Shown here: positions 20,701-60,900 of the stretch, piece after piece
Layout of the letters: each line of letters begins with the position of its first letter
Numbering within the stretch: position 1 is the stretch's first letter
Assembly (NCBI GenBank): GCA_951406725.2
Contig: OX597823.1
Coordinates: 64,976,001 to 65,040,000, forward strand
Origin: Octopus vulgaris
Lineage: Eukaryota
Direction: 5' to 3'
Length of the DNA stretch: 64,000 nt
The notes under the pieces: generated by a model
What the model saw: only the letters and a program-made list of their open reading frames with translations
Database searches by the model: none
Told to the model about the DNA's origin: nothing
Position numbers and translations under genes: made by a program

Positions 20701-21839
20701 GATGTTCTTCGCACGAAACTCTCGTCCTTAAAGTCATATTTGTAACTTTTCTAGCAAGAATACATACATATGCATATAATAAGTATCTATATGTGTCTGT
20801 CTATTGCAGTAATAATCCAGTTATTATCTGTTCATAACTTATGATTTCACTTCTATCAAGATTAAAAATTCAGTGGCACCATTCAAATTCATTATAATAT
20901 GTTGAATTTTAATCAGTGGCATCTTCATATCATGTACATAATGAGTTTTCTAGCAAGAAGCTGTTTTATCGTTCAAAACTGTTACTTAAATCATTTACTA
21001 CAATGATGCCATAAATACAGAACCATTACAAATTTTGAGACATTTTCTATTATAATTCTAAATATGACGAATATCGACTGCGCTTTTCAGCCTTTCAGTG
21101 TCAATTAAGCAAGTGCTCGTTATAATTGTAATTAAGTAACTCTTTAATATTCAGATAACTTTAAATTCCTATTGATCTTTTATCTTTTATCTTTTATCCC
21201 TCACTTGTTTCAGTCATTTGACTGTGGCCATGCTGGGGCCATGCTACCTTGAAAGGCTTTAGTCGAACAAATCAACCGTAGGACTTATTTTTTTTAACGA
21301 CTAGTACTTATTTTATCGGACGGTTTTGCCGAACCGTTAGTTCCCCAAGGACGTAAGCACACCAACACTGGTTATCGAGTGGTAGTGGGAAGATCTTCCG
21401 TAGGCGCGTAGTATTTATCAAAGCTATTCCAGTTAAAGCATCCAGCCTATTTCAAAGCAAAGAGAGGTTTGGCTGCTATTTTCAGAAGATAAAGCAACCA
21501 CGTAGAACAATAGTTCTTAAATAGTGTGTCGTGCATTAAAAAATGTAATTTATAAAATCAATACTAATGCGCTTGATTGCTTTTTTAAAACTGTGATGTT
21601 CATTCATAATTTTTCTAAAAAGAACTACAACGAATAAACAAGGCGAGCAATAGTTCTACGTTTCTTTTTGCACCTCTTCTGCTATTACTACTCGTGCTGC
21701 TGTTATTATTGCTACTACAGTTATTCTATATTATCTGCTACCTGAACAAGAAGCATCTGTTCTTTATGATTTGTATCTTCATCCAATGGGATTAGAGAGA
21801 CGGTTGTCGTACGCACCAACTTCTACTGTGTTATGTCTG

Positions 21840-22106
21840 TTATGTAAGATAATTGCCAATTTGTTCACTGCTATTGTATTTACACTTAGCTGCTACCTTT
21901 TTCAAGATATACCGATGAAATTCCGTAAAAACGAATAACATTGTAACGAATTCTTTAATGCAAAACATTTCTTTCAAATTCTCAGCCACACTGTTGAACA
22001 AATGGTGTCGGTTTGCTAGTGAGAAGAGATCGGCTAACAGAAAATGTATCAGACTTAAATCAGTACAGCTGTTGATTTTATCGTTTAACCCTTTAAAACC
22101 GTACCC
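21840..22106 (-). pseudogene. Open exon-like segment resembling dynein pre-AAA6 region (L..FQRL.LLRCLRPD)
   Basis: Acceptor ggttctacag|GGG. Open frame GYGFKGLNDKINSCTDLSLIHFLLADLFSLANRHHLFNSVAENLKEMFCIKEFVTMLFVFTEFHRYILKKVAAKCKY with protein-like composition. Confidence 0.4.
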
Positions 22107-22239
22107 CTGTAGAACCACAGTGCAATAACTGAAACAAGTAGAAGATTTAAAGAACATTGTCACTCAATTCGGTAATGAATATCTAAATATGTTATGTCCG
22201 TGAAACCAGCATTATATATGTAACATAGAGTGCCTTTAG

Positions 22240-22860
22240 AGGGTAACGTCCCCCTTTGGGCATGAATGACTATAGGATTGCACCGAGAAAATTACCCTCC
22301 GAGGCATAAGTCGGGGCAAGGTTGCTTATGGAAGACTAGCAGTCGTCCATGTATATACCAACCTCCCTTCTCCACGCCACCGATGTTATGCAAAGGAAAG
22401 GCAAAGGCCGATACAGCTTGGAGCCAATGACGTTGCAACTCATTTCTACAGCTGAATGAACTGGAGCAACCGGTCCGGGAATCGAACTCGCTACCTAATG
22501 AAATTGAGCCCGATGCCATAACCACTGAGTCATGCACCTTCAGTACGTGTATCCGAGACCCCCTTCGGTCACGACACTGACCATGGGATTGCACCTAGAA
22601 AGTTACCCTCCTAGTCACAAGTATGGGCAAGGTGGTTTATGGAAGACCAGCAGTCGCCCATGCATACCGGCCTCCCCTCTCTACGCCACCAGTGTTATCC
22701 AAGGGAAAGGCAACTCATTTCTACAGCTGAGTGAACTGGAGCAACGTGAAATAAAGTGTCTTGCTCAAGAACACAACACGCAGCCCGGTCCGGGATTCAA
22801 GCTCACAACCTCACGATCGTAAGCTCGACGCTCTAACCACTGAGCCATGCGCCTTCACGT
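22240..22860 (-). mobile_element. Two tandem copies of tRNA-derived CORE-type SINE family D
   Basis: Head gtgaaggcgcatggctcagtggttagagcg and CORE-like ttcttgagcaagacacttta. Other copies are at 19520-19840(-) and 43830-44066(+). Confidence 0.8.
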
Positions 22861-23531
22861 GTATAAACAGGACTAATTTAGCTGTTTCACTGTAGATTGA
22901 AAGAAAAGATATAAAAGACCTAAATCAATTTTCGAATATTATTGAATTCTCATCAGTGGCATCTACATGAATTTGATCAGTTCCAGAGAAACGATCAGCC
23001 AATTTGTTTATATACTCAACTATTACAGTAGCTGCAGAAGACCGGCGCTACTAATTTGCATACCATACGTGTTAACACTTTATTTTAAATATCAGGAGCA
23101 TGTCAACGCAGTTCACAGTATCAAGTTATGGTATAGCATATGTAACCTATGTAGTATCTTTATAAAGAGGACAAAAAATTTTGTTGTGTCGCTGTACACT
23201 GAAAAAAAAATGATGAACAATTTGAATCGGCTTGTTAGGGTAGAGAAAGGGTAGCATGCCTGTAATTTGTTTGTTGATTAGAAACAGTTCATTGTAGCAT
23301 TCCATTTCACAAATGATGGATTTAGCTGGATCTAAACGTTAAGAAGCGTATGTTTGATAACAGTTTGCAGAAAACTGTGAATATATGAAGAAGCTATTAT
23401 TGGAATATTTTAATAAGTCATTATTGCTTAACCCCAGTCAGCCCCGACCGAACAAATACGTCACAAATGGCATGCTATGCGTGCACGTCCCATTTGCTTT
23501 GTATATTGTAGACATCATTGTATAATGTAGG

Positions 23532-23697
23532 CACTAGCGTAGCTAGAGAGCGGGCGGTAGGGGCGGTTCACTCTGGGCGGCTCTTTTAAAGGGGTGCCAT
23601 TTTTGGGTCTGCTGTAGGCAATATGTATTTTTGTGAGGTCCGGGGGCTGCAAACGGAAGGGTCGCCCCGGGCAGCACACACTCTAGCTACGCTAGTG
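23532..23697. mobile_element. hAT-type MITE (166 bp)
   Basis: Perfect 17-bp TIRs (cactagcgtagctagag / ctctagctacgctagtg) and an 8-bp TSD aatgtagg at 23524-23531 and 23698-23705. Confidence 0.9.
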
Positions 23698-24730
23698 AAT
23701 GTAGGTCAGTTTATTTTCTCTTTGTTTTTCTTTTAAACGCCAGGGTATAATTTGAAGGATGCTTAGCTTCTCTTTCTAGTGGATCGAGCAATCCCGACAA
23801 ATCCCATTGACAACCAGTATTTTAATATCATAAATTATAGAGAAGTGAAATAGTTCAGTGGGATTTTAGCAATGTCTTTGACGAGGATTCTAATTTTAGT
23901 CTTGAGGTATAACAATACTGACAGAGTCGAATGTAATTTTGTGTTGTAAAATAACAAAAACAAAATAGCCACCAACAAATTAGAGAAGAGAAGTGGCAGC
24001 ACATAGGTGAAGTTTAAATCCATTAGCTGAAATGGATGCTTAGTAGATCGACGTTTAGCTTCTGTTTAAGATGTTATTCTGGTAATAAGTTTTCTTCATG
24101 TTATTGCGTCATTTTATCTTGTGCAAAATTCCACTGGCTGTGAAAACTATTTATGAGAGTTTTGTGAAGTGGAATACTTAGAAAGAATCTATTGCTTACT
24201 TAGCGAAGTGCTCGCGAAATATCTGAGCCAATATGATGAGATCATCATGTCTAGATGTTATTGATAAATTCCTTATAATTTTAGGTACTTTGAGTGTATG
24301 TGTGTGTGTTTGTCTGTGTGTTGGTACATGTGCATTTGTGTAAATATTGAATATTGGCTTCAAATTTTGACACAAGGTCAGCGGTTTTGGAGGAGGAAGT
24401 AAATCGATTACATCATTTTCAGTGCTCAACTGCTATTTATTTTATCGACCCCCGAATGGATGAGAGGTGAAGTCGATCTCGGCAGAATTTGAAATCAGAA
24501 CGTAAAGACGGCGTGTTAACGATTCTGCCAGCTCACCGCCTTGTGACTACTGAATATTGCATTGCGAATCTTTTTGGTAGATTTAATCTGTTACTCGGCT
24601 TATTAACCAGCTGACCTTTGGGTGACTTTAGCATCCTTTTGCAAGCATTCGGAACATGGTTTTGGAATTAGGAGACCCTAAACTTGGCTAAATCAAATAA
24701 GAAATATATAAATACTAGATCTGTGGATTC

Positions 24731-25335
24731 TTAGATTTCGTCATTTTCATTTTGTGGTGGAAGAAACTGATAATGGTTCATACTATACCTGAAGCAAAGA
24801 TATATAAGTTTCTTTCAAGCAGTTTATTTTCGTTTAAGTTTAATAGCTACAGCACAAAAGACCTTTCGATTTATTTATTTTATGTCACAAATTGCCAATA
24901 ACTGGTTCACTGCATTTCTTACAGCGAGAATGACATGGGAGAGTGTGTAAACAGAGGTCTTCATTTGAGTTGATTTTCTCAATGATGTTTAGATAATTTA
25001 TTACAACAGCGAATACATTTATACGCATCTATATGACTTCGTCAGAGGAGAAAAGAAGCATCGATAATTGTTTTCAAGATCTCTGAATAACTTGTACGTG
25101 AATAGTTTCTATGTAACATTGTATTAATCTGAACTCTATGCACATACTGTGAATGTTTACATAACTCATGCAATTGTTGTTTGAATAACCATGGTGTGTT
25201 GGAAGCCAATAGATCAAACCATTCTCTATATAGGCTTTCTCGTTTCGAGACATGCTTTCTGAAGATTTGAAGCTAAATCCTAATTTCACATCTCAATACG
25301 ACCGTTGTGGTGGATAGAGAAACTCCAAGACAGTA
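24731..25335 (-). pseudogene. Two pseudo-exons (25148-25335 and 24731-24788) resembling the dynein post-strut YRPVA...YQYS region
   Basis: The CA|gtatgt donor joins in phase to the tttgcttcag|G acceptor. The joined reading is LQIFRKHVSKRESLYREWFDLLASNTPWLFKQQLHELCKHSQYSMNHYQFLPPQNENDEI*. Confidence 0.4.
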
Positions 25336-26614
25336 CTGAAAACTAAGTAGCTTTCTTGATACATTGTAGATTCGAGTTGTAAAGAAGGTAGTAGGTTTTG
25401 TCGAATGATATTTGGCAGTAGTGTGGATGAATTAGAATTAATTAACTACAGAAAAATTCTGTACGTGGTGTATGTGATTGATCCCCTGTTAAAAAACAGA
25501 ATGGATTTTATAAAAGAAGCTTTAGCTACTGAGCCGAACGAATATCAGTCACCGAGGAAGCATAATAAAAACGAAAGACATAACATTATTTTTGCCACTG
25601 AGCTTCACAAACAAGATTTACTGCCATTTACATCGTCTATACTTTCGCTAATATATATTTGCTCGATTACTAGCTAAGTTTCATTTGCTCAATGTTGTCG
25701 CTGATATTATTTTTGTTGTAGTCACTATTATCATTGCACGTGCGGTTTTTTTCTTGGTTGTTGCTGTTGTTGTTGTTTATGCTTATGTAAGATTTGATGG
25801 AAGTCGTTCATTCATCAATATTCCGACGTTTTCGTTCACTGCGCGTCTAAAATTAACTTATAACATTTGTCTTTCCTTTTTTTTAAATGTGGTATGGTGT
25901 AATTTGAGTGGGATTTAATTGTTATTTCTTGTAGATCGAGATACCACATAGAGATTGCATGGCTGGTTCTTTTGCTTATTGTTGAATACAAAAGTGTGGA
26001 ATTCGATATTGTTATTGTGACATTTGATAAAACAGAATCAGTGTTGAAGTTGATGTTATTGCTTTAGTTTAACCCTAGGTCAGCCCTGATGAAATACAAA
26101 CATGATTAAACACGTTTCATCTGTGATCACGGCTGCAACTAGGACTACATTGCTCAGTTTCCCTTTTTCTTTTGTAGATTTTATGGCGTGATATGATGGA
26201 ATTTAGGTGCTATTTCTAGAAAGTCTATATAAGTAACATCGATAACTACTTGTTTAGGTGCGAGATCTAGTGGTTTTAGGTGTTCGACTCATGCTTATCA
26301 AATTTCGATTTTGTTCGATTCTCGGACCATGTTTTACATTGTACTTTTGAGCAATGTTCTCCATTTTATGTTGCTTCAGCTCATTCAGATGAAAAATATA
26401 AGTGTCAGTTATAGCAAAGGAGGTAATACGGGGACGGGCTAGTTTTCCGTTCAGTGGGGCGAGGTGCTGTAGCATAATAGAAATCCGAATATATTCCGGC
26501 CTATTGGGCGTGTAGGTCCGAAACAGATTTTGAAATTTAATATATTGGTAATTGTTTATCATAGTGCCTTGCTTTGAAATTGAAGGCTCATAATATAAAT
26601 GTATTATCGTTTGA

Positions 26615-26975
26615 CTTTTCTTTGTTTCAGTCATTTGATTGCGGCTATGCTGGGGCACCGCCTTGAAGCCTTTTAGTCGAATAAATCGACCCCAGGAATT
26701 ATCTTATTTTTTGAAGCCTAGCACTTATTCTGTCAGGCTCTTGTGCCGGACCCTTAAGTTACGGGGTCGTAAACATACCAACATCGTTTGTCAAGCGGTG
26801 GTGGAGGACAAACATAAACATAAAGACACATACACTCACACGCACACAAGTTCACGTCTACCAAATCCACTCACAAGTCTTTGGTCGGCCCAAGGTGCCG
26901 CGCAATAGGACTGAACTCGGAAACATGTGGTTCGGAAGCAAGCGTCTTACTTACCACACAGCCATGCCTGAACCT
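26615..26975 (-). mobile_element. SINE A copy (diverged)
   Basis: Reverse-complement match with internal deletions. Confidence 0.75.
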
Positions 26976-29363
26976 ATAAAAGAAACAAAAAAAAAAAAAA
27001 AAGCATACGCACTGCCGAAATGTTCGAGATAACCTGAGAGAGAGAGAGAGAGGGGGGAGATAGAGAGATAGAGGCTGGTTTCGAAGTTTAATCAATGCTA
27101 CATTTTGTTGTGAGACTTTTTGCCGATGAATCGATATTTTTTCTTTATTTTTTCTCGCTTTTCTTTCCTTAAAAAAATCATTTCTTTTGAATGAATTCTT
27201 ATTAAGAACAGTTCATGCGAGTAAAAGGTCAATAAGTGAAACAAGTTGAAGAAATAAATTTTAAAAATTAAGTAAACAAAATCTCAAATAAAACGTACAT
27301 TGATTTCATTTTAAAATTTCCTATGCTTTCTTCATTTAGTTAAGATATATATTCGCTTAATAAATATTTGCTGCATATCTTTCTTCTCTCTAAATTTCTA
27401 GTTTCCGTTAATGAAAAGTTTGAATTTTAATTACGGAAACCTTTCAGTGGCAATACGTTTAAGTTAGTTTCAAGCAGTTTGTGTAATATTATATTAAATC
27501 GATACGATAAAAAGATATGTATGTATGTATGCGCGTGTACTTATCTATTTATGTATTTTTGGTTCCAAAGGGTGAAATATAGTATCCTTAGTTTCATATA
27601 TTCCAAACTGGCCGGTCACTGGTTCATTATGTTTCTTACAGCGAAAGTATTAAGGAGTTTCTGTCGACAGACGCCTTCGTCGGAGTTGCATTAGGTTTTC
27701 GATTTCTCAGCGATGTACTTCGTTGAATGATATAAACATATTTTTAAGGCCCAGAAAAAAAGAAAGCAACCATGTGTCTTTCTTAAGATCTCTGGAAACA
27801 GACGAAAGGAAGATTTCTTTGGATCGAAATCCTGATACGAATGCTTGTAACAACGTGGAATCCATTAAAGGCGCACAAGGTCTAGGTGACAGTTTTAAAG
27901 GAAGCGACATATAAAGCCTCATACCGACGTGTATGCAGTGAAATATTCATAATTTCCTTTTATGGTCAGATTTATATGTCATCATTTAGGTGTTTAGTTT
28001 TATATATGACCGGTTTGTTATCGTCGTGTTTATTTTCGCTGTGGATTAACACAGAATTTCTGTAGCGCTTTGTCAAGATAAAATCAACCACCAATTAGCT
28101 TAAGTCTACATATGTAATATGCGCATGGTTCATTTCGTATTGAAGCCATAAGAATTATGACTTTGACGTAGGGTTAGGGTTAAGAACCGAAAGAAAAAAA
28201 TCTAGCATTCTTTATGAGTTAGACAGGAGCGTATTCAAAATATAAAGTGTATTAGTAGAACCCTAACCCTAAATTAAAATTATTTTCCATTGCTTTCGTT
28301 TTAGCCTTTCGTAATTTTTCTTAAATGTTATCCTTAAATTAATTTAACAATTAAGAAGAAAAAAAGAAAGGCTAAAATTTAGGGTTAGGGTTAGTGACAG
28401 GATGTTGTCTCAGTTTTAGACGCAGAAAATGATTTTAGCTCAATAGAAGCCATTGACTGGTTAAAATTCGAAAAATTAAACTACGTTAAACTTACAAATT
28501 ACAATTTTCTCAAGAAAGCCAAGAGTAAAAAAAAAATTATTTTGACCCATTCTACCAGTATACGAAGTTTAAAAGTGTTTAGTTAACTAGAAATTGTGTT
28601 GAAAATTGCCGTTCAAAAGGAAAAGATCCAAATAGTCTAATTAAGGGGCACGGTGATCGCCATAAGTTTTAAGCTTATATAGAAATACCATTAATATTTA
28701 CTGGATTGTAAAACACGACACCGTTTACAAAAACATTCGCACCGAAAGCATATAGAAAGTTTGTGTACATAAAACAAAATATGAACTAATATAGTTCTTA
28801 AATTTGACAGAAACAGGGAAGCTAATTCGCTGGTGTAAAGATACCACACTTAGTGTAAAGGTGTCACACTTAGTTAACAGAGGGATGTGGGTTCGAGTCC
28901 TGCGCGAATAGGAAAGCCTTCTTTTTATCTACCGAGGGTTTATATGCCCCTTCATTTGACTATTTTCTATAGTCATTGCACTGTGATTGCTTTAAGTTTA
29001 CATAAAAATACCATTATTATTATTTACAGGATTGTAAAACACGCGCCGTATAAAAAAACCTTCGCACCGTAATATATATTACACAAAAAAAAAACAAGCA
29101 TATAATTGGACATTCATACACATATATTTACATATAGATTTTAATGTATTTAAACCAGATTTTGTGTGTTTTTAAGATTCAGTTTCTAAATCAGACAGCA
29201 CATTTTAAACAGCGTTGAATGGTGTTATATCGGCTTTTAGATTAGATATTTCTATGTGCTTTAAAATAGGCATTGAAAGTGATTTCACAATATAAAAAAA
29301 AAAAAAAATTATGTTCCCTTCATATACATACATGCATCCTGATATATCTGTTTGTGTATACAA

Positions 29364-29790
29364 AGGCGCAGGAGTGGCTGTGTGGTAAAGTAGCTTGCTA
29401 ACCAACCACATGGTTCCGGGTTCAGTCCCACTGCGTGGTATCTTGGGCAAGTGTCTTCTGCTATAGCCCCGGGCCGACCAATGCATTGTGAGTGGATTTC
29501 GTAGACAGAAACTGAAAGAAGCCTGTCGTATATATATATATATATATATATAAGTGTGTGTGTATATGTTTGTGTGCCTGTGTTTGTCCCCCTAGCATTG
29601 CTTGACAACCGATGCTGGTGTGTTTACGTCCCTGTCACTTAGCGAGTTCGGCAAAAGAGACCGATAGAATAAGTACTGGGCTTACAAAGAATAAGTCCTG
29701 GGGTCGATTTGCTCGACTAAAAGGCGGTGCTCCAGCATGGCCGCAGTCAAATGACTGAAACAAGTAAAAGAGTAAAAGAGTAAAAGAGTA
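29364..29790 (+). mobile_element. SINE A copy
   Basis: Full length, from the ggcgcaggagtggctgtgtgg head to the (gtaaaaga)n tail. Confidence 0.85.
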
Positions 29791-30224
29791 TAGAAGATGC
29801 ACCAGAAAATGAACGTGGGGCGTCCTTCTCTGTACGTGCGTACATACACATACTCATAGACACACATACAAGGGCGAGTCAGACGAGAAGACGACTGTCT
29901 ACTTATGTGTATGTGTGCGTATTAGTACATGGGCTTGTATTTGCAAGTGTGTAGAATATGCATAAGTAAGTGTAAGATTATACGTTCATACGTAAACCTG
30001 TTCATACACACAGGTCATAGGCTCTTCTGACCTTTCCAGAAAGATGTATGCTGTTATATTTGCATCAACGCACCCGCTCACTCCTCCTTTCTTAACTGCC
30101 AAGGAATAATAGAACGGCATTTCTATATTTTTTTCCTACTGACCTCTATTTATTTGATATTCCTCTTGTTTTGTTCCTTTTATTTTTTAATGTTTATTGT
30201 AATTACACTGTATATTGTATATAT

Positions 30225-30274
<50 letters not shown>

Positions 30275-30680
30275 TATGTATATATACACACATATATATG
30301 TATATATATATATGTACATATATATATATGTATATATATGTGTGAATATATATGTATATATGTATATATATATGTATATATATGTATATACATATGTATA
30401 TATATATGTATATATACATATATATATATACATATATATATATGTATATACATATATATATGTATATATATATATGTATGTATATATGTATGGTATATAT
30501 ATATATACATATATATGCATATAAGTAAATATGTATATATACATATAAATACACAGATATATACACGCAGTCATATACACATTTACACACGCACATACAC
30601 TCTCACACTCATACACGTACGCATACCCCGCCAAATATGTATAAGAAGTCAGAGTTACACACACACACACACATATATGG
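30225..30680. repeat. Long (TA)n-derived compound microsatellite
   Basis: About 450 bp of alternating purine-pyrimidine repeats. Confidence 0.95.
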
Positions 30681-31157
30681 TTAGCGTGTGTACAAAATCA
30701 CACACATATTCAAATATCAAATGGATATAATGAGATTTATGGATGTGTATACTTGCATACATACGCACATACAAACCCACACATATATACACTCATACAC
30801 ATTTTTATGCACACATGTTATCACACAAAGAGGCACAACCCTTTAATACAAAGTAGTAGAATGATAGAATATTTTTACTTTCAATGTACATAAATAAAGA
30901 TAGAAAAACACATATATATAAAAGACTAGAACAACTTTAAAAACTCCTATTAGCGAGTGAAACACGTGTAATGGTGATTAAATAATACACAAAGCCTTTC
31001 TAATCTCTTGTTTTATTTATCTTTTTCTGTTTTACTTGAGGAATTTGTAGTCGAATGAATGAACTCCAGTACTTTTTTTAAAGCCTTGTACTTATTCTAT
31101 CGGTCTCTTTTGCCGAACTGCTAAGTTTCGGGATTGTAACTACACCAACGCCGATAA

Positions 31158-31188
<31 letters not shown>

Positions 31189-31880
31189 TGTCTATATAGA
31201 AAAACACAGACATGCGCGCACATTCACACGCACACACACACACACACACACACGCTCACACACATATTTATAAAGAATGGACCGCCCCAGCTGGATCACT
31301 TGTGATTATAGACCTACTCAATCAAGGTAGCTGTAGAGTTGATAATATAGCATCTACACCATTATTAAGAATTATTGTGTTGGAATACAATACTTAGTTG
31401 TAATATAATAACTTTATAAAGTGATATTATAGCTTCAAGCCAGAAAAGCCAGACAGTATTGATATGAAGATACATCAACTGAGTGTTCAACATCATTTCT
31501 GTTGATGATTTTTCTTCTTTTAGTCGTGACACATGTCAAAATATTCGTCATCAAAGGGAATAGTTTATTGAATTAACAATACTTTATTCACAACATTTAT
31601 TTGCCTCAAGGCAGAAACGGCAACTTAATCGTCTCAATTTTGTCATTTACAACTGTAATATTTGTTTGCACATATATACGTATAAGATGGAAATTTTAAA
31701 CTTTATTTTACCGTGTAAAACTCTGACTCTGCATCCCGAGAAATGTAATCAAGATCAGTCTCAGAGAATAATAGTGCAAAACGATCACACAGTGGAATAA
31801 ATAATGTAGCTAGGAAGAAGTGACGTCTAACATTTGAGATGTAGTTCTTTCCTTCTGAGTTATTATATTTGTGGGTTCAT

Positions 31881-32270
31881 GTGGAGGCACAATGGCCCAG
31901 TGGTTAGGGCAGCGGACTCGCGGTCATAGAATCGCGGTTTCGATTCCCAGACCGGGCGTTGTGAGTGTTTATTGAGCGAAAACACCTAAAGCTCCACGAG
32001 GCTCCGGCAGGGGATGGTGGTGATCCCTGCTGTACTCTTTCACCACAACTTTCTCTCACTCTTACTTCCTGTTTCTGTTGTACCTGTATTTCAAAGGGCC
32101 GGCCTTGTCACTCTCTGTGTCACGCTGAATCTCCCCGAGAACTACGTTAAGGGTACACGTGTCTGTGGAGTGCTCAGCCACTTACACGTTAATTTCACGA
32201 GCAGGCTGCTCCGTTGATTCGGATCAACCGGAACCCTCATCGTCGTAACCGACAGAGTGCTTCCATTCCA
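31881..32270 (+). mobile_element. tRNA-derived SINE family C (tRNA-Arg-like head)
   Basis: Head gtggaggcacaatggcccagtggttagggcagcggactcgcgg..ttcgattccc. 13-bp TSD atttgYgggttca. Near-identical to 46994-47364. Confidence 0.85.
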
Positions 32271-32330
32271 TTTGCGGGTTCAATACTGCTCAAGAAAGTA
32301 TAGTGCATTATTAGTATCTGCAAAAGATAC

Positions 32331-32433
32331 CCAACGTGTGGACGTTCAGTGATATTGATGTTTCGGCTTAAGTTTCCCTAAATCATACATTGCATCTGGA
32401 AAAACGACCTTGGCTAATTCAGTTGTTGATGCA
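32331..32433 (-). pseudogene. Pseudo-exon, in phase with the 42810-42978 segment
   Basis: Acceptor ttgtcctgtttcttatttag|T. Translation ASTTELAKVVFPDAMYDLGKLKPKHQYH*TSTRW, with donor GG|gtatct. Confidence 0.35.
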
Positions 32434-33649: not shown

Positions 33650-33707
<58 letters not shown>

Positions 33708-34080
33708 GTGCGCACGTACGCACACACATATTTGAAATATATGATATACTCCATTAATGAAAATGCAGCATTATTACTTCAAGTGTCATGATTAAATAAT
33801 TCTAAGCAATCATTACAAAACAAGCATCAATCTGTTATTGACCTATTTACAAAATACATGTTAATAACATATCAAGCTACCAGTAATGCCTTTTTGGTTA
33901 AAATTTATAGGGGGCGTAACTCACTGTAACTTAATATATTCGTATACAACTGATTTCTTGATCAAGTAGAAAAACCTTGATTGACAGAGATAATAAAAAA
34001 CGGGTACATATAGCAGCAAGAGCTTATCGGCAGTAAGAACTTCATACTCAAAAGTTTAATAAGTTCGCAAATTATCTAAA

Positions 34081-36663: not shown

Positions 36664-36711
<48 letters not shown>

Positions 36712-36750
36712 GCATGTATCTATATATATATATATATATAGATATATGTG

Positions 36751-36811
<61 letters not shown>

Positions 36812-37298: not shown

Positions 37299-37360
<62 letters not shown>

Positions 37361-45334: not shown

Positions 45335-45392
<58 letters not shown>

Positions 45393-47678: not shown

Positions 47679-48074
47679 TCTTTATATATAAAAGTAAGGT
47701 TGTGTGTCTGTCTCCTACGATTTAGATTCCTAACTACTCCCACATTTTGCAGTGCAGTTTAACCAAAACCGGGTATCTTATAGTCGTGATTCATATCGAG
47801 CCCTTCTGGGTATTAGCGCGCGTCTACGATGAGTCTACGATTTAAAAAAAAATTTACCATCATTCTTTTCCATTTTAATGCATTTTTTCCGCTATTATAT
47901 AAGGGAAGTAACTCTCTAAAAATGTCTACGATGAGTCAACGATTTAAAAAAAAATTTACCATCATTTTTTTCCCATTTTTAATGCATTTTTTTGTTTTTT
48001 GGCTATAACTCTCTAAAAATGCTTATATAGTTATTTCCCTTACAAACCCGAGCAACGCCGGGCGATGCCGCTAG
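47679..48074 (+). mobile_element. Non-autonomous Helitron
   Basis: A|TC...cccgagcaacgccggg...CTAG|T. Highly similar to 63560-63954 and has an internal duplication (ctacgatgagtc..). Confidence 0.8.
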
Positions 48075-49690: not shown

Positions 49691-49723
49691 TCTCTGACGA
49701 AGAGCCATGCTCGAAATGTCACA
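49691..49723 (+). ncRNA. Degenerate minimal hammerhead motif
   Basis: CTGACGA-A-GAGC cat GCTC-GAAA-TG-TC; canonical core with weak stems I and III. Confidence 0.45.
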
Positions 49724-50407
49724 TCCCTACATTTTTCTATCTTAAACTTTCTCTGAGCATCAGTCTTATACATTCCCTACGGACTTCCATTTGACATTTG
49801 TTTTTTCTATTTTTCTTATGATTTTTCATTTGTCTACACACACGCACACACACAAACACACACACATACACACACATATATATATATATATTAATATATA
49901 TATAGTTATGGTATATTCTGTTAACAACGTAGTAGAGTACAATATAAAGCTCATCCACCTTCAGATTTCATCCTATGTTATCCAGTAATAGTATTATGCG
50001 TACTTCTAGGTTTGTGCTTGGGCATCTGAGGTGTGTGAATAGATAATTGATAAAATCCTTCTTGTTGACTCCATAATGTTTTCAAGGGATTCATTTCTTC
50101 AGGTGATATAACATTAGTGGATGTTCAACAGAGGGATGTTTATCCCTTTTTACCAGTATGACGGTTACAGAAGTTTTGTGGGTATTTCATTGTGCATTTG
50201 ATGGGGAAGGGATGGGAAGGTGATGGAAATAGAGGAAGGAATGGTAGCTATATGAGGATGGAGGTGTGTGTGTGATGGTGTTGGATCTATTCCGCTATTC
50301 ATTCAGCAGATGTTAAGGATGAGCGGTACATTCTTTTGTTTGATTTTGTTTAAGGCATGATTATCTTCAATAAATAGTGAGCTCAACAGGTCATCAGTTA
50401 CTGCTGC

Positions 50408-50635
50408 TGGCGACGAGCTGGCAGAATCGTTAGCACGTCTGGTGAAATGCTTAGCGGTATTTCGTCTGCCGCTACGTTCTGAGTTCAAATTCCGCCGAGG
50501 TCGACTTTGCCTTTCATCCTTTTGGGGTCGATAAAGTACCAGTTTCGCACTGGGGTCGTTGTAATCGACTTAATCCCTTTGCCTGTCCTTATTTGTCCCC
50601 TCTATGTTTAGCCCCTTGTGGGCAATAAAGAAATA
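50408..50635 (+). mobile_element. SINE B copy
   Basis: Full-length match to 2362-2593. Confidence 0.85.
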
Positions 50636-51398
50636 TATATTTATCAGTTGCAGAGTTTTGTTGACTGAATAGATAAATGCTACTTTCTTGTGGTGACCTT
50701 TTCATTGTTTCTGTTGGTATAGTGTATAGCATCTCAAATATTGGTTGGTTTGTTTATTTGTTCGGGTTCCTTCGCTGTTCTATGATGTGTTATTTCGTTC
50801 CAAAATATTTTTTCAAACTCCAGAAATGATGTTTTGTACCTCTGTTTACATGATGTGATCACCCCAGAGTTCATATTTATCCCGTCTTCCCTGAATGTGA
50901 TTAGTTTCATGGTTTCTTCTAGGCTTAGGTTTCTTTTATGTATATATATATATATATATATATAGGAAAGGAATACATTTTTATAATTCTAATCCAGAAA
51001 TGCGTCCGTAATTAATCGAAGACTATTTGATTTCATCATTTTTCTTCTTTTTACCTATGTGAGTTACAAATATTGTTATCTGTGGAGACATATTTTGTAG
51101 GAAGATGAAATAGCGGTCTTTTGCCTGCTGTTTCTAAATTTTCGGTATGTGGCGAAGCAACTTGTTGCTAAACCCTTAATTGTTGTTATATATATCCTAA
51201 TGTTGACAAACCAAAAAACATGGCGAAACATCCGATGTCAATCATTCCAAAATAGGATTGAGGGTGAGTTACCACGTTTGTCCATGATGCCGAGGTGTTT
51301 TAAGACTAGGCGCTTTGAGAGTGTATGCACACCACCACACCACACCACGCTATTGCAGCCACCGGAAAATACACGAAGCATATACGTTAAGTATATGC

Positions 51399-51452
<54 letters not shown>

Positions 51453-51929
51453 TAATATATATATATTTATATATATGTAGGTCCCGGGTTGAGTCGGGGT
51501 TAACCACAGTAAGTAAGGTACTCAATACATAGCAGAGTAAATTAATTTATTTTATAGAAGGAGCTTCTACATGGCATGAACTGCTCTCTCACTCAATAAT
51601 AATAATAATAATAATAATGATAATATATATATTTATATATATATATATTTATATATTGTCAGATTTTGAACTCAAAGCCATCACAAGGTTTCAACACTCT
51701 CGAATAGTAAACCACACACCCACAGATTTTCGTATCCTTGCTGATCTGTTCGCATAAACTTAAAATAAGTAAGCTTCGTTTATAGTAGGAGACTCGTTTG
51801 ATTTTTTTTTTTTGGTATTTGGCAGTATAGATATACAGAAAATAGATATAAAGAAAACCCATTAACAAAGCAACAACAGCAGAGGTTTGCTACCATTTAG
51901 GATATTGATTGAGGCTAAAGAAAATATTA

Positions 51930-52013
<84 letters not shown>

Positions 52014-52044
52014 TATCCTTCAGCAATAAAGTAAGTCAAGGCGT

Positions 52045-52085
<41 letters not shown>

Positions 52086-52379
52086 GGTTTTAAATAGACA
52101 GGATGACGTGTTTATGTTCCGTTTTTTCCCCAATGATAATCACTTACGTTGGCATAAAGCCATAGGTTCAGCACAAAAGTAGGATGTTTGCAGTGGTAGC
52201 GTTGTTCTTTTCTTTTGAATTTATTTTCTTCGTGCATCACTGGTATTTTTTTATCAACCTTGGTGATTGAAATAAAATAAAAATAAAAAAAACTCAAAAA
52301 AGCAATCTGAACTCACATCTGTTGGATTTGAACTCAGTACAAGTACTCAGAAAAATAGAAAATAAAGTAAACAAAATAC

Positions 52380-52552
52380 TGCAAGTTATTTTGAGCCAGT
52401 ATTCGACTCTGTCCAAGCAATTATCTTCCAAGATATCTGACCTAACGATATTTTTACTCAGTGACTTTCTCCGTTTACAGACAGTGTGTCCGGCAGAACT
52501 TCATTCAATACATCCGAAAAATTTTAATGTGCGATCAAGAAGCAAATTGAAA
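52380..52552 (-). pseudogene. Pseudo-exon weakly resembling dynein AAA5 (LE.AI..G..V)
   Basis: Acceptor tttgtttatcatttag. Translation FNLLLDRTLKFFGCIE*SSAGHTVCKRR.., with one TGA. Confidence 0.3.
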
Positions 52553-53019
52553 CTAAATGATAAACAAACAAACAGAAATAAACACAAGCAAACAGTGGAA
52601 TCAGTGATTTTCTTCTTGTCTTATATATATTTTATTATCTCTTCGAAAAATTGCGCTTGTAATAAAATACATCATTATTTTTATATGCTATTAATCACAA
52701 ATCGTATAATATTGGTTTATAAATCACGATGTAAAAAGAAAGATGATTAAACTCGTTTTTTTTTGTTAGTTTTGTTTTTATTTTTTGTTTGTTATTTTAC
52801 AAATAGTAAACACTAAACAAGGAGATAAAATAGGCTAAATTAGAAAGAAAATATAAAGAAAATACAAAAATATAAGAAAATAAAAAGATACGTCAGCTAA
52901 ATCACTTCAGTCTTTATATATTTTTAAAGATTTATTCGGAATGGTACATAACTTTCGAAAAATATGAAACTTATGACGAAGTATTTTCTGTTTTATTGTT
53001 GGCACAATTTTTTTCATAT

Positions 53020-53371
53020 ATGCGCAGTTTTGGCTGTGTGGTAAGATACTTGCTTCCAAACCACATGGTTCCGAGTTAAGTCCCACTGCGTGGAACCTAG
53101 GCTAAATGTCTTCTGTTATCGCCTCGGTCCGACTAAAACATTGAGAGTAGATTTGGTAGACGGAAACTGAGAGAAGCTCGTCATATATATATATATATAT
53201 ATCACCGTGACCACTGTGACCGACCAGACTATCAGATGTTGATACACATCGCTGGTCACAATGCGCTTCAAATGACACCACCCCGCTGGCTAAGAGAGCA
53301 GAAGAAAGAGAGAAAGTTGTGGCGAAAGAGTACAGCAGGGTCGCCATCTAACCACTGAACCATTGCGCCTC

Positions 53372-53414
<43 letters not shown>

Positions 53415-53690
53415 CACACACACAAACACGCACATACATACCCACCCACACATATATATGTGTGTGTGTGTGTGTGCGTGTGTGTGTGTGTATGTCTTTG
53501 TGTCTGTCCCCCACTCCCTTGAAAACCGTTGCTGGTGTTTTTACGTCAACGTAACTTAGTGTTTCGGTTAAAAAAAAAGATCGATAAGAATAAGTACCAG
53601 CTTAAAGAAATAATTCCCGACTAAAACCCTTCAAGGCGGTGCCCCAACATAGCCACAGTTAAATCACTTGAAGCAAGTAAAAAATAAATG
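53020..53690 (+). mobile_element. SINE A copy with a family-C-related SINE fragment (about 53200-53375, - strand) in its microsatellite
   Basis: The head and tail of family A are separated by a reverse gtggaggcgcaatggttcagtggttag-headed fragment. Confidence 0.7.
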
Positions 53691-54246
53691 AAAAGCTATA
53701 TACATCCATCCATCCCTACATACATGCATACATACATAGTCTCTCTTCTAATTGTGGATCGTTCGGATCCTGCTCACCTCCTCTCGATTCAAGCGTGGCT
53801 TAGAAGTCATACTATATATATAATGCCTTCATGTTTGTTTACTTAAATCCTTTAAGACATCATGTTCGTTTGAATTTCTCTTTACGAATTTTTATCCATT
53901 TCTAATATCCTATTAATCCACTCCAAAGTACACTTTCTATGTTAACATATTACATAGTCAATCCCTATATTACATAAAATCTGAAACTTGCTCATACTAT
54001 TTTCTTAACATATGATGGTCGTTTACTGCACCATCCTTTACAATTTTCGCCGTGGTCATTGCTGATCTTGGTTAGTTTTTTTTTTCTCTCTCTCCCTCTC
54101 TCTGTATTCCTCTCTGTCCCATTCTCACTCACATGCATATACATACATAGTGTATGCTTGTGTACATATATAGACACGCATATACATAAATGCATGTATA
54201 TATTGTATATAAAAATACGTACACTAATACATATGTGTGTATATGT

Positions 54247-54904
54247 GCGCTTGACATTTTAATGGAGAACCCATTTCTAGTCACCAGTGACTATTCGATC
54301 CAAAAGGGTTCATTTGTGAGACATGACAGCAAAGAAGAGAACACATTCACTCTCTGTGCGTGATTAGACTCGGAACGTTTGTGAGGAACCCATTGACCCA
54401 ATTTACTAACTTTTCCGATGGCATGCAGGTGTCGATGAATGGTTGAATTACCAAATCCAAGCTTTTCTGTTAGTTCCTCAAAAGTTACGATGAAACTTTG
54501 TTTTGCAAAACATCCTCGTCGTGCTCTTCAAATCTTCTAGGATGAGGCTCATCTTCTAGGCTGTAGTTTCCGGGTGGGAATTTCTGGAACCACCGTTGGT
54601 ACTGGCTAACGCTTATTGCCCGATTCCCATATACTGCACATATTCCTCGCACTTTCCATTGCGTTCTTGCCTTTATTGAACTCATGAAGCAAATTATGCT
54701 GAATATGCTCCTTTGTCACTTCCATTATAGCTTTGAAAAATTAACTGTTAAAATCGAACTGCACTCTTCAAAACTTGCAATAAGAATAAATATAAGGTAA
54801 AATTACTACCTGCTTTTATTGCAAGTTAATGCAGGTTGTTTATCCCGTCACCCTCCGACTTTTATTTCATGAAATTGAAAAAATGCATTTTTTATGGGAT
54901 GGCT

Positions 54905-54907
<3 letters not shown>
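54247..54907 (-). mobile_element. 5' half of the same mariner family, next to (TA)n
   Basis: Reverse-complement match to 62393-63050. Encodes WFQKF..GNYSLEDEP, LGQWVPHK and IVTGD*KW. Confidence 0.85.
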
Positions 54908-54972
<65 letters not shown>

Positions 54973-55067
54973 GGGAGAGTTGAAAAAAACAAAAAAAACA
55001 AAAGACGAAGACAGGTGGTGTACAAAACAAACTGATGTATTAGTATAACGCTCAGGAATAAAAAAGT

Positions 55068-55103
55068 CTTTTACGTTTCGAGCCTACGCTCTTCTACAGA
55101 AAG
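55068..55103 (-). ncRNA. Degenerate minimal hammerhead motif in a (TA)n-flanked Penelope-like repeat (about 54968-55160)
   Basis: CTTT-CTGTAGA-A-GAGC gtag GCTC-GAAA-CG-TA-AAAG; core A6 is replaced by U. Confidence 0.45.
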
Positions 55104-55160
55104 GGACACAGAAAAACAAGGAGGGAAAAAATGTGTGTAGTGGCTAACGATCTATCATGG

Positions 55161-55200
<40 letters not shown>

Positions 55201-55203
<3 letters not shown>

Positions 55204-55477
55204 TATACACACATACATTATTTATTATATATTATGTTATTTAATATATTTTATATATTATTTAATATATATTATATATTATATATATACACACATACAC
55301 ATATATATATATATATACACACATACATACATAAACACTCAATACACACTCACATACACACAGTGTCAGCGATCGACCACTAACGTTATTATTTTTAGGA
55401 ATAATAATGTTCTCATATTCATACATATATATGTATACACCCCCACATGCATACATACATACATACATACATACATG

Positions 55478-55547
<70 letters not shown>

Positions 55548-55632
55548 TATACACACATACATTATTTATTATATATTATGTTATTTAATATATTTTATAT
55601 ATTATTTAATATATATTATATATTATATATAT

Positions 55633-55663
<31 letters not shown>

Positions 55664-55760
55664 CACACATACATACATAAATACTCAATACACACGCACA
55701 TACACACAGTGTCAGCGATCGACCACTAACGTTATTATTTTTAGGAATAATAATGTTCTC
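55201..55760 (+). repeat. About 215-bp near-identical duplication (55201-55414 and 55545-55760)
   Basis: Both copies end in cagtgtcagcgatcgaccactaacgttattatttttaggaataataatgttctc. Confidence 0.9.
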
Positions 55761-55786
55761 TTATATTCATTTTAATTATTTAATCG

Positions 55787-55830
55787 TTACAGTTGAAAAG
55801 GTCTCAAAATGACCGAAACCGGTACTGAAA
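55787..55830 (+). ncRNA. Minimal type I hammerhead ribozyme motif (U3-A8 core variant) in a Penelope-like repeat
   Basis: ttaCAG-TTGAAAA-GGTC tcaaaat GACC-GAAA-CCGG-TA-CTG: stem I, core, stem II, GAAA, palindromic stem III and a GUA cleavage triplet. Confidence 0.6.
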
Positions 55831-56514
55831 TGTTCACTATAAAATTATTTTAGTATTTTCTATTTTTGACTTGTTTTTTCATATATATCAACTCGTGTGT
55901 TCCTTTTCACCCTTATACATATATATATATATATATACACATTTACATCTGTTTGTGTGTGTATATGCCTGTCTGTTTTTCTCTATATATACATGTATAT
56001 TTATCATGAATGTAGGTTTTTATGTATGAATCGATGCATTTATGTGTGTGTGTGTATGTTTGTGGTTGTATTTGTGTGTGTGTGCGTGTGTTTGTGAATG
56101 TGTGTGTTCAAGTTTTTATATTTGATCATGTAGTGATATATTTCTCTTATATCGAAAAAAAATCTGCAATGGCATCTACATTAATCCAGATTTAAATGCT
56201 GCAATAACGATGTTCGAGAGCCAAAATCTCCGTCCATTTTATATGGACGACTTAAGAAACAAAGCCTTTTAAAGCAGAAATTTATTATTCTGTTTCTATT
56301 TACTAAGATTTACCTCTTCCATAATATATGTTTCTGTTGTTAACAAAGAGGTTCCTTTGTATTAGTCAGTTTTGAAATGTTTCCACGAATGTTTCATGTA
56401 TAGTTTGCAGTTGTAGCAGCAAATTGTCATCTTTCGTCAGAAATCGGTTAATTATCAAGGTGGGTATCTGCCCCGGGTATAAAAGTTATCGGTATTGACA
56501 ATATATTGGCAGGC

Positions 56515-57240
56515 CTCAATCGATCGAATTTCCGCAAATGCTTATTTGATAAATTTCGATACTATAGGTTGATTGATCGAATTTCATAAGACAAGCTTTG
56601 CCCGTATTTCATCAGACAGCTGATGGAATTTCATCAGCCCGACAGAATTTTTATAGACTATAGAAGAGGATTTAGTATAGGTTACATACGATAAGTTACA
56701 GTGTAGGTTATAGACTTAACTTACTAGCAATGTAAGCTATAATACAACCTAAAATGACGAGGACAGTTCTGCGAATTTTCTGAGCCTGATAGTTGAGATC
56801 GAATTTCATTGAACGGGCAACTGGTCGAATTTGATCCAATTTGATTCATAGAGTTTCTCAGATAAGCAGTTGATGGAGGGTTACTTGAGCAGGTCAGTTG
56901 ATCGAATCTTATTTGATGAACAGTTGATCAAATTTCATTAAACGGACAACCGATCGAAAATTTTAACCGGACAGTTTCTCGAATTTCACGTGACAGAAAG
57001 TTGATCGACTTTCATGAGATGGGCAGTCGATCGAATTCCACCAAACGGACAGGTGATAGAATTTCATCGAACAGAGACAATTGACTGAATTTCAGACAAT
57101 TGCTCGAATTCCTTTCAACTGACAGTTGATCCAACTTCATCTTTGGGCACATGATCAATTTCTGTCAAATTGACAGTTGATCGAATTTTAACAATCGGAC
57201 GTTTGACCTAATTTCAGCAAATGTGTGTTGGTCGAATTTA
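56515..57240 (+). repeat. Degenerate ~26-bp minisatellite (consensus about GGACAGTTGATCGAATTTCATCAAAC)
   Basis: Roughly 20 or more recognisable units, densest at 56760-57240. Confidence 0.8.
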
Positions 57241-57521
57241 ATGGGCTATGGTATATGCTATAAACTATAGGCTAGGGTATAAACTAAATCTATAGATTTA
57301 TTTGAACAGGTATTTTTTTTTGCATTCAAGAAATCTTGAATCCAATCCCACTACATTGCATCTTGGGATGGTGTGATTTTCTGTTGGCTCGAATCGACAC
57401 GATCCCTATGATTGAAATTGGATTCATTGAAGACTTGACTTTTGAGTAGAGTATAAATGTAATTCAATTATGTAATTCTGCCATACTGATTATGCTTGAG
57501 AATAACGTTAAATATGCATAC

Positions 57522-57972
57522 CCTTGTGGGATACTCAACCACTTATACTTAAATTCAATGAATTGGCCTTTACGATGGAATTCTTGGAATACTCCTACTT
57601 AAAACCAAACGGTATAGATTCACCGAATATGACTTCATGTCAAAGAAAATTCATATGTGAACTAGAAAATAACATTTCTATATGCAAGATCTTCATGTAT
57701 GCCCTTTTCCCTCAGAACATATAATTGTTGTTGCTATATACTTTATATAAAGCTTTAATCTTCTATGTACAAACACGGAGATCGCACTTGCAATATTGCT
57801 GTTGGCGTTGTTTTCTAAAAGTTCAACGAGTGATATTCATTAAACGCCTCAAACCATATTTTAACCGATATAAGCTGCGTGACACAAGAAAATCACGGAA
57901 GCTATAAAAACAAATACAGAAATACAACTCCAAAACAATCAAAGAACTCCTTTTCCGGTTTGCCGAAGATGC
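57522..57972 (-). pseudogene. Pseudo-exon resembling dynein stalk end / start of AAA5
   Basis: Acceptor ttaattctag|G at 57972 and donor AAGG|gtatgc. The frames give VIFLCHAAYIG (cf. AAFIAYLG), REKGIHEDLAYRNVI (cf. W..GLP.D..S.EN.II) and IPFGFK* (cf. IDPQGQ..KW). Several stops and frameshifts. Confidence 0.45.
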
Positions 57973-60900
57973 CTAGAATTAACAGTTAAACTTTCACATC
58001 AATGCAATTATTCTTGATTCTTGATCACTAATAACCAATAACAACACACGTCACGAATAACCATTTCATTCACCGGGAAAGTCTGGAAACTATTTTGGAT
58101 CAAAATGCATTACTTTTCCAAACAAAATCTGAAGTAAGGAACACAAAAATCTTAATACAAAAGATCAAACTTGAAGACATTCTTTATTTTAAGATCCACA
58201 AAAAAGTATATTTTTGAGCGTACAGCGGTTGTCGTAGATGAAATAGAATTGGGTGGAAAATAAATCAAAGATGCTAACCATATGAAAAATAGTTAAATTA
58301 GTGCTAATATAGAGAGCATTCAAGCAACAATATACTCTAAACACGTAAACTTTACATTACAATATAACCACGCTACATTCCTTAAAGCCTCTATTGTACT
58401 GTAATAAGCTTAATAAAACAATAGAGCAACCGTATGCAGGTCAGAGACGTGTCGTTCGCCCATTTACCATTTCCAATACTGCCTTGTATTGATGCTTCTA
58501 ACATTGAAATTGGTTAATTTTAACTGTGTTCATGTGGAATATGAATGCTTTCGCTTTTCTTGATCTTCTAATTATTGATTAGAGCACATTTCACTATATG
58601 TGCACTTAAACATCCCTCTTTTGTTGTTGGGTATTCGTGTTCGCCACATCAGTTCTGATGAAGCAAACTACAAATCAAAAGCATTCCAGCTATGGTCATC
58701 ACATTTCTCGATGTCATTACTACATTCGTCGTAGTTTAACGTGGTATTGCGTGAGAACATGAAGATTTTGCTGGTGTTTCTAAGACGTCAAGGGACCGCA
58801 AAGAGCTTTCCCCGTTGGATCGTCATCTATTTGTAAACAGCTACAATAGTGTGTTGAAATTCCCTACTGTTCTAGCAACAATATAATGTTATAGTTTTCA
58901 TGTAAGCATTGCTAGTTCGGAGACAGTATGTAACTGCTGTGGATAACACTGTGTGGAAACGATTTCTTTCACTTACGCCTCTAACATCCAGTGAATTGCG
59001 AGACTTTCATAAGAAGCAGTGCTACTCAATGTGATGGTGAAATGAACAGTCTTTAAAACTGTCTAAATTGTAATTCATGATATTTGACATATAAAATTGC
59101 TGTTGTTCTTATCTTATATTCATCTTATCGATCGGTGTCTTTCGCCTACCCCCAGAGAGAAGTATTGTAAATTCTCAAATGTGTACAACATGAATTAGAT
59201 GTCATGAACTGTATTCTTTTAGAGATGTAATCTCAAAAAGAATTCTTTCTGATAATAATTTTGATTAGTTACAGGCCGCTTTTATAAAATATTACTCATG
59301 GAAGAAGCTGCGAAACATTGCGTTAAATGCGACTACTAGCTACACAATCTCGATATACAATGGTCCTCAAATAAAACACACGTATCTTTCATGTGTGTAT
59401 GTTGTTACGAATCTGTCTGCTATTCATTCCACAATGAAAAATTTTGAATATGGTATAAGTTCAATTTCAAGTTTTACGATTACTTTCAATCTTCTCTGAC
59501 TGTTTGTTCACAAGTTCTGTTCTTTTATACCGTTTTGCAACTAAGCTCTTTTCCAAATACTATTGACGATTGAGTGGGATATATCTATAGACTCAAAATG
59601 TAAATGACAATTTTGAAATGTATACGAGCAAACAAGAAGAATGGCTTCATTCTAATTGCTTGCTGTCTAAATTCAATGCATCACAAATCACACGGCTCTC
59701 GAATGAATGTGTATATACGTGTATCTGTGAAAGAGAAAAAGAGGAAGACACTGAGGGTGAGGGAAGAAGAACTAGATAGGAAATGAGAAATATATATTGA
59801 TACATAAGAGGAAATGAGCGGAAGAGGTGAAATCAAGAGGATGTGAGGCATGCATAGTTATCGAGCGAAGAATAGACGAAATCAAAGACAAAGAAACAAA
59901 ATAGTAAAGTCTACTATAAATGGAGGAAATATTGACCCACTAACACATTGTTCTTGTTGTTGTAGAGATTATTGGAATTGTGCTGTCATTGCTATTATAG
60001 CTGATTGATTACAGATACAGCTCCTAGTATACACATTACGGTGTTATATTGAAGGTTTACTCCTGTATCCTTCATTGTTTCTGTTCGTTTCAGTTTCTTT
60101 GAAATTTATAAACGGTCCAACAGTCTCTTAAACATACGATATTCATTGAGTAATAAGGTTTTCAAGCTTAACCTTATGGTAATGTTCGGTATATCCTGTT
60201 TGAATAGCCGTAACATGATTGCAGATATCTTTAGAGTGTCCTATTACAGTAATATTCTTCTTAAGAAATATTACTAATGCATTCTGCACACCATTTCCAC
60301 CAGTTTCATATCTTCTCTATTATTTATAGTTGTTGGTGTCATTTAACCTCAGCTCAGGCTTCATTAAGCAAATTTATGATCGAAATAATTTCTGCTGCAA
60401 AGACTCCATCTTCATATACAAGCACAGTGTGTCTAGAACTGAATCAATGCAAGGTATCATTTTTGTTTTAATGAGGGTAGCGCGTGACTTTTAAGAAGCT
60501 TTGGTTGCTATTTATAACCACGATACAGGAAATACTTGTTGTTTAAGTCATCCCACGCTTATATCATCTGTAATCAAAGACATTCAAGCCATGACTATCC
60601 CTACTAAAGTTTCCCAAGTTTTTTTTTTTTTACCCGTCGTGTATCTCGGATGCATTCTATTCTAAGACTATCGGGTGCGGTTTAAGGGAGCTTTTTGTTA
60701 TTATTTCTTGTTGGGCGAGTAGATTACGTTGAGACGGCGCTCTCATTAACTAATTCAGTGAATAACTTTGTTTCCGCTTGATGCTCTTTAGCCACAGGTC
60801 GATCGTAATTGAGCAGACCTATGATCAACGTAATTCTAGCCATGACCGTTCATTGATTTTAGAAATATTATCTAATATGATCTATCATCTCCAAAAACAG

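Follow-up and report, generated by a model that had tools for sequence, protein, structure and literature searches.

A probable long-dead DNAH14-type dynein heavy chain gene antisense within CFAP65 of Octopus vulgaris

The window analysed is the 64-kb stretch C10:64,976,001-65,040,000 of the Octopus vulgaris genome, and positions below are counted from its first base. Its minus strand carries, from about 60 down to 21 kb, a series of islands that are read here, with a probability of roughly 0.58, as the remains of a long-dead dynein heavy chain gene of the DNAH14 type (class 9B, DHC9B), lying antisense in CFAP65. The signal is faint, and a single test, post hoc in part, supports the homology at sequence level. 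An earlier note on this DNA had proposed a decayed, intron-bearing dynein pseudogene. That proposal is favoured here by way of a fixed-register comparison with an amphioxus protein, P0262; the collinearity of motifs on which the note had based it fails, and the class it suggested, DNHD1, is unsupported. Membership in DHC9B is supported, at a level below established.

Fixed-register comparison with an amphioxus class-9 dynein

P0262, which a cluster look-up gives as the Branchiostoma floridae protein XP_002606597.1, is a long-branch class-9 chain in the tree. It is 41-43% identical to DNAH6-type proteins, which are 56-72% identical to one another; its branch position, with features of human DNAH14, suggests that it may be a DNAH14 orthologue. 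Twelve ungapped segments of the islands (222 codons) were scored against the 78 dynein heavy chains that cover all twelve, shorter proteins and the divergent octopus gene C17 being excluded for coverage. Four of the segment registers come from the earlier note, seven from runs with generic or class-9 profiles and one from placement by hand.

P0262 ranks first of the 78 at 85.7 bits, with 11 of the 12 segments positive and the 52.5-kb segment negative, and class-9 proteins take six further places in the top 12 by our own class lists. P0262 exceeds the average score of 69 other dyneins by 26.6 bits. Controls were picked for generic similarity (score match 103.9 vs 100.0), with a free choice of 2,000 positions per segment, and gave excesses of -0.2±7.9, 1.3±8.2 and 1.7±8.3 bits at three search widths (400 controls each); at every width 0 of 400 reached the P0262 value. 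DNAH6-type proteins, scoring 71-79 bits, show a weaker excess (13.9 bits, P 0.045-0.087), and the divergent octopus genes C27 and C2 come last of the 78 with 17 and 7 bits.

Length agrees at one site. Between the spliced Gln-Tyr-Ser and the lid helix the window has about 66 codons, against 35 for canonical dyneins and 78 for P0262, so that about 30 extra codons stand where P0262 has 43 extra residues, an agreement in length only, with no sequence match inside. P0262 is the sole one of the seven class-9 proteins shown to have a long insertion before the lid helix. Three pieces absent from the earlier note (59.95, 24.6 and 21.8 kb) fall in the predicted order, and stops in two of them face P0262 residues, Gln and Ser, that are one base change away. 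The 59.95-kb piece was a blind tBLASTn match (E 0.51) located between the two stalk islands of the earlier note. Its frame has its best BLASTP match on P0262 in the expected place, residues 2159-2183 (E 0.027), and so has the 42.9-kb frame, at 2459-2480 (E 0.29).

Dynein heavy chain genes of the octopus genome

Nineteen dynein loci with motor-domain chains or several exon matches were found in this genome. Labelled from exon sequence, they comprise classes 1, 2, 5, 6 and 8 once each, class 3 three times, class 4 twice, class 7 four times and class 9 twice, plus three divergent genes. According to PMC5100056, the sea urchin has the same class set, with both DHC9A (DNAH6) and DHC9B (DNAH14), and the class-9 split dates to the start of animals.

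The two octopus class-9 genes (C14:56.9 M and C19:52.0 M) are of DNAH6 type, 59% identical and with common intron positions. In the trees they join a cuttlefish-cluster protein and stand apart from mammalian DNAH6 (support 1.0 and 0.99), and they represent a duplication that took place in molluscs or in cephalopods. A 185-residue stretch of P0262, in a genome search that scores first-look candidates only, revealed no separate DNAH14/DHC9B locus; all 44 matches fall in known loci, either of other classes or of DNAH6 type. Because both class-9 genes group with DNAH6 and the other classes are all present, DHC9B became the candidate, and it was picked before any DHC9B-like sequence was viewed. The preference for DHC9B rests on one representative protein.

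The three divergent genes have open exon chains over the part traced, from the stalk to the C-terminus. C2 (C2:106.14-106.28 M; L031, L063, L065-L072) has an insertion early in the microtubule-binding domain, of the sort described for DNAHX. C17 (C17:59.29-59.44 M; L061, L080-L093) is probably of class 13 and was missed by the Pfam AAA_9 search, and C27 (C27:34.24-34.41 M; L032, L064, L073-L079) is probably of class 11, its features suggesting DNHD1. Since three open-frame divergent genes exist elsewhere in the genome, the loss of a DNHD1-like dynein, as the earlier note had suggested, is not supported; the profiles of these genes miss the window, and C27 and C2 fit it worst. Their number equals that of the divergent animal classes in PMC5100056. 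Stray dynein fragments also occur, at C2:101.27 M (L060:4751-5338, minus strand), C2:105.7 M (L062:4138-4320, plus strand) and C19:71.76 M (L033), the first having no adjoining exons in 60 kb of flank.

Motifs, searches and alternative explanations

The nine peptide motifs quoted in the earlier note are all present on the minus strand where it placed them, across three frames, and the joins that it cited, donor 42810/acceptor 32433 and donor 25148/acceptor 24788, exist. In a ranking of all AG or GT sites of unique window DNA, 24788 falls in the best 0.2% of acceptors and 42810 in the best 2% of donors; the others are in the top 2-36%. Strong splice-like sites abound here: over threshold, the minus strand has 94 acceptors and 108 donors, the plus strand 90 and 123. 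Few-stop acceptor-donor segments number 19 and 22, respectively, with 13-28 per strand in neighbouring regions. The minus strand is not enriched in exon-like segments, and an excess of splice signals over chance was not borne out. The description of the islands as unique sequence held: those searched are single-copy save for short repeat bits at their edges, the 52.5-kb island being compared with fetched loci of the genome only. Nor are they matched by dispersed genomic repeats, which would have identified them as transposons, very old repeats being liable to escape this comparison.

The leading alternative, a serious though less probable rival, is that the islands are ordinary single-copy intronic DNA, including unrecognisably old repeats, in which the motifs and splice-like sites were selected out of noise and the class-9 preference is post hoc. 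Much of the evidence suits it, beginning with the even distribution of exon-like segments between strands, and the following results weigh against a dynein fossil. Chains of 11-12 ordered dynein-like motifs score at the control median, being reached by 21 of 40 and 23 of 40 controls. The per-island P values combine to 0.0025, which picking the best of four windows per motif reaches in 50% of simulations. An out-of-order match at 48.1 kb beat all 25 whole-region controls, as the ordered 42.9-kb motif did. The 42810/32433 join is at control level once the whole region is searched, and neither this join nor 25148/24788 matches any intron position of nine traced paralogues.

Whole-region searches are equally silent. 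A purpose-written spliced, frameshift-aware codon aligner, with a neutral-decay model and a local-composition null, recovers the exon chains of nine dynein genes in this genome. It gives 27.6 bits for 19.5-61.5 kb against 27.8±3.8 in 23 controls, 25.7-27.2 bits against 25-27 with larger profiles, and 23-26 bits, equal to background, with class 9, 6, 7 and 4 profiles. Profiles of single paralogues, C2, C17 and C27 included, also remain at background in the window. Free alignment of P0262 alone gives 25.6 bits, within the 21-29 of controls, and a P0262-blended profile gives 30.5 bits, equalled by 7 of 20 controls. The best whole-protein match lies in the expected block for one of nine islands, as in best-of-7 controls. 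Exons for AAA1-AAA4 and the C-terminus were found neither in 114 kb upstream nor in about 42 kb downstream, a search whose best-scoring paths take in frames resembling transposons and for which P0262 is poorly modelled. Because the motif chain and the whole-region alignments sit at control level, collinearity, which the earlier note had offered as its argument, fails to carry the claim; with generic and class profiles it is no better than in controls.

The positive test has weaknesses of its own on the same side. It is partly post hoc, as the alignment had been viewed before the segments were delimited and P0262 was singled out, and most registers came from profiles of which P0262 was itself a minor member (1 of 23 and 1 of 144 sequences). 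Allowing roughly for 78 candidates, by our own arithmetic, brings P to near 0.03. Using P0262 in place of mammalian DNAH6 does not improve the per-island P values (Fisher 38.8 and 39.4, respectively). Finally, P0262 is not named as a DNAH14, and repeats have left artefacts in its gene model.

Database searches gave little. A Pfam scan of the kind suggested in the earlier note, here covering MT, AAA_9, AAA_lid_11, Dynein_heavy and AAA_6, found dynein families in none of 24 X-read frames and none of 66 open frames, and genome-wide AAA_9 and AAA_6 searches gave 73 and 122 matches, none at the C10 locus. In tBLASTn with 59 DNAH9/17-type and longer representative dyneins the window did no better than reversed DNA. 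BLASTP of P0262 against the 21.9- and 25.2-kb frames misses the expected place, and hhalign of a class-9 alignment against two islands gives probabilities under 1%, off-register. No match was obtained in the PDB or a large protein set, and an atlas gave no usable or only unrelated matches; protein database searches with a C2 exon and the 21.9-kb frame found nothing, and a metagenome scan returned one unrelated dynein only. A generic coding-potential test is underpowered, intact genes giving 27-52 bits and controls up to 29. A placement of the 52.5-kb island as DNAH5/8, made by hand from spacing, was dropped, as DHC3 ranks 74th of 78.

Against chance stand four observations. None of the 400 controls reaches the preference for P0262, although each segment could be placed freely at 2,000 positions; the class preferred is also the only one whose intact locus the searches failed to find; the insertion site agrees with P0262; and the islands searched match no genomic repeats. 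Should chance be the answer after all, the case would be a warning of how readily weak motifs line up, with chains of 11-12 of them in order in about half of the 42-kb stretches of this genome.

Simulated decay (one replicate each) shows what the aligner can see. Canonical genes decayed to 0.35 changes per site still give 82 and 102 bits. A canonical dynein that became a pseudogene recently is excluded. C2, C17 and C27 fall to 27-68 bits at 0.2 changes per site and to 20-35 bits at 0.35, the control maximum being 38; because they drop into the control range, silence of generic profiles is expected for a divergent gene. A fossil of another dynein, either a very old canonical duplicate such as DNAH6 or a duplicate of classes 11-13 including DNHD1, is improbable: DNAH6-type proteins come just behind P0262 and fit the 42.9- and 21.8-kb pieces equally well or better, and stray fragments do exist in the genome, but decayed canonical genes would still be visible, the three divergent profiles give background, C27 and C2 rank last, and the intron positions match neither class-9A copy.

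Islands of the minus strand

The islands, all on the minus strand, are as follows in the order of the putative DNAH14-type gene.

60013..60240, minus: acceptor-donor segment, one stop in 76 codons; stalk by position only
59904..59978, minus: likeness to the end of a class-9-type microtubule-binding domain, interrupted by an in-frame TAG; absent from the earlier note
59482..59574, minus: possible second stalk coil, unsupported (P 0.24-0.87)
57575..57901, minus: post-stalk island, three motifs of the earlier note in three frames; many stops; evolving without constraint
52380..52552, minus: possible first AAA5 exon, weak; one stop in 57 codons; P 0.25-0.48; -1.1 bits vs P0262
42810..42883, minus: AAA5 strand motif ending at a strong donor; best single piece (16-21 bits, island P 0.003-0.015)
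32332..32433, minus: possible next exon, in phase with the 42810 donor; joined reading
25148..25335, minus: possible end-of-buttress exon with phase-2 donor; one stop in 62 codons; alone not significant (P 0.43-0.92)
24540..24788, minus: possible AAA5-lid exon; strong acceptor; about 30 extra codons; lid-helix match over a 1-base frameshift
21742..22128, minus: possible lid/AAA6-start exon; 95-codon open frame from an acceptor, then a frameshifted AAA6-start match
20850..21100, minus: last two motifs of the earlier note (IIEN and MPLIKIQ), unsupported (P 0.58-0.75); 5-12 stops per frame

For 60013..60240 profile comparison gives no significant match, and the P of 59904..59978 varies with the profile from 0.01 to 0.19. 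In 57575..57901 the best local matches of the aligner fall outside the register of the earlier note. The 42.9-kb motif is the sole ordered one above all controls in a search of the whole 42 kb (0 of 25 reach it). Joined across 42810/32433 it gives 24-26 bits against 14±2.5 (nominal P 0.007-0.013), a reading 11 residues short of canonical. P for 24540..24788, whose final bases touch a repeat, is 0.027, 0.03, 0.41, 0.083 and 0.057 by profile. The AAA6-start block of 21742..22128 (P 0.005-0.053) lies at about the expected distance; this island has no match in the PDB, the atlas or the protein database.

Decay and absence of constraint

Every island has 1-6 stops in its best frame, and frame breaks. 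Organism E, a relative at about 6% divergence, has a contig that covers 57,313-60,954 with 222 substitutions in 3,642 bases, X13 and X15 being in agreement. Within it the 57.9-kb island differs at 27 of 330 bases, and in the frame containing Gly-Ile-His the 17 listed changes fall 7/4/6 on codon positions 1/2/3. Six of the seven stops checked have no listed difference in organism E (40 of 236 differences are listed), and none of the 12 listed indels (of 39) is a multiple of three. The 57-61 kb stretch is unconstrained, and any gene here died before the split from organism E. One RNA run gave no coverage over the unique part, and for 52-61.5 kb no RNA data set was listed; neither result is informative about expression.

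The CFAP65 intron

Four exons of the plus strand, one at 10,475-10,633 and the others at window-equivalent positions 86,705, 154,867 and 168,123, can be read as successive portions of CFAP65; Pfam backs the first, second and fourth. Because the flanking exons are consecutive parts of CFAP65, the islands lie antisense within one 76-kb intron. The earlier note had placed the stretch near CFAP65; the gene is indeed present, but flanking exons and Pfam put the stretch inside its intron rather than beside it.

10475..10633, plus: CFAP65 coding exon, the last before the large intron (PF24816, E 2.7e-18; AG/GT ends)
10634..64000, on to window-equivalent 86704, plus: CFAP65 intron (76,071 bases), with the whole finding antisense within

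The next exon (L040:2705-2815) matches the start of PF24291 (E 0.006). Two successive CFAP65 introns measure 76 kb (10634-86704) and 68 kb (86816-154866), and an adjoining one 13 kb. In the rest of the intron, Pfam on 36 frames reveals no further nested gene.

By comparison with other loci of the genome, about 40% of the window is repeat or microsatellite. CpG counts per 2 kb rise from 11-35 before 16 kb to 34-70 after it (window 1-64000), with GC unchanged. Pieces at 17650-18030, 41599-42042 and 63050-63550 are dispersed repeats present in other loci too, presumably LINE and mariner fragments by resemblance, with no library match. The segment 56500-57250 is degenerate and internally repetitive, and its minus strand carries a long frame with few stops; 40810-41159 is a tandem repeat of two 184-base copies.

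A possible history of the locus

In the proposed history, the ancestral gene would have encoded a single-headed inner-arm motor of cilia and been nested antisense in CFAP65. Duplication of DNAH6 may then have made the DNAH14-type gene redundant, after which it would have diverged, although redundancy and relative timing are themselves conjectural. The gene would next have been disabled, prior to the split from organism E, and repeat and microsatellite insertions would later have spread its exons apart; no protein would be made from the locus now. A wider version, offered tentatively and less probable than not, is that octopuses lost DNAH14/DHC9B after the DNAH6 duplication and that the fossil extends across both the 76-kb and the 68-kb introns of CFAP65, explaining their size.

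If true, these introns record an old nesting of two axonemal genes, one of them a dynein lying inside CFAP65. The loss of DNAH14/DHC9B in octopuses could then be dated and, with a duplicate of DNAH6 alongside, would amount to an experiment of nature in the replacement of an inner-arm motor; its effect on the sperm and cilia of cephalopods could be tested. Loss of a single axonemal dynein is rare according to PMC5100056, and no paper on cephalopod dynein loss or on a dynein nested in CFAP65 was found in the open-access literature.

Comparison with known dynein genes and pseudogenes

Unitary pseudogenes in general have frameshifts and stops and retain their intron layout, and the octopus locus behaves like one. 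Seven dynein pseudogenes from fish and bird genomes are described in PMC5100056, likewise with frameshifts, stops and a kept intron layout; these are recognisable by standard searches, whereas the octopus islands are at the detection limit.

The divergent classes 11 (DNHD1), 12 and 13, and DNAHX of PMC11785096, are likewise weakly similar to canonical dyneins and hard for tBLASTn. Unlike the window, their octopus members are open exon chains, and they show the worst fit to it. The C2 gene may be DNAHX, judging from the insertion in its microtubule-binding domain. If so, an internally fertilising animal keeps DNAHX, contrary to the suggestion in PMC11785096 that DNAHX goes with external fertilisation.

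DNAH6/DHC9A, as in the octopus genes at C14:56.9 M and C19:52.0 M and the proteins of cuttlefish (P0124), sloth (P0138) and Biomphalaria (P0284), shares class-9 residues with the window in the microtubule-binding and AAA5 pieces. These genes differ from it in being intact, in lacking the long insertion and in having other intron positions. From DNAH14/DHC9B, for which P0262 stands in, the window differs by its stops and frameshifts, by having only about 220 placeable codons and by its position antisense in a CFAP65 intron. With DNAH14/DHC9B (Table 1 and supplement S1, S3 of PMC5100056) the islands would share the order of stalk, AAA5, lid and AAA6-start, and P0262 is both the best fit of the 78 and the protein with extra length at the same site as the window.

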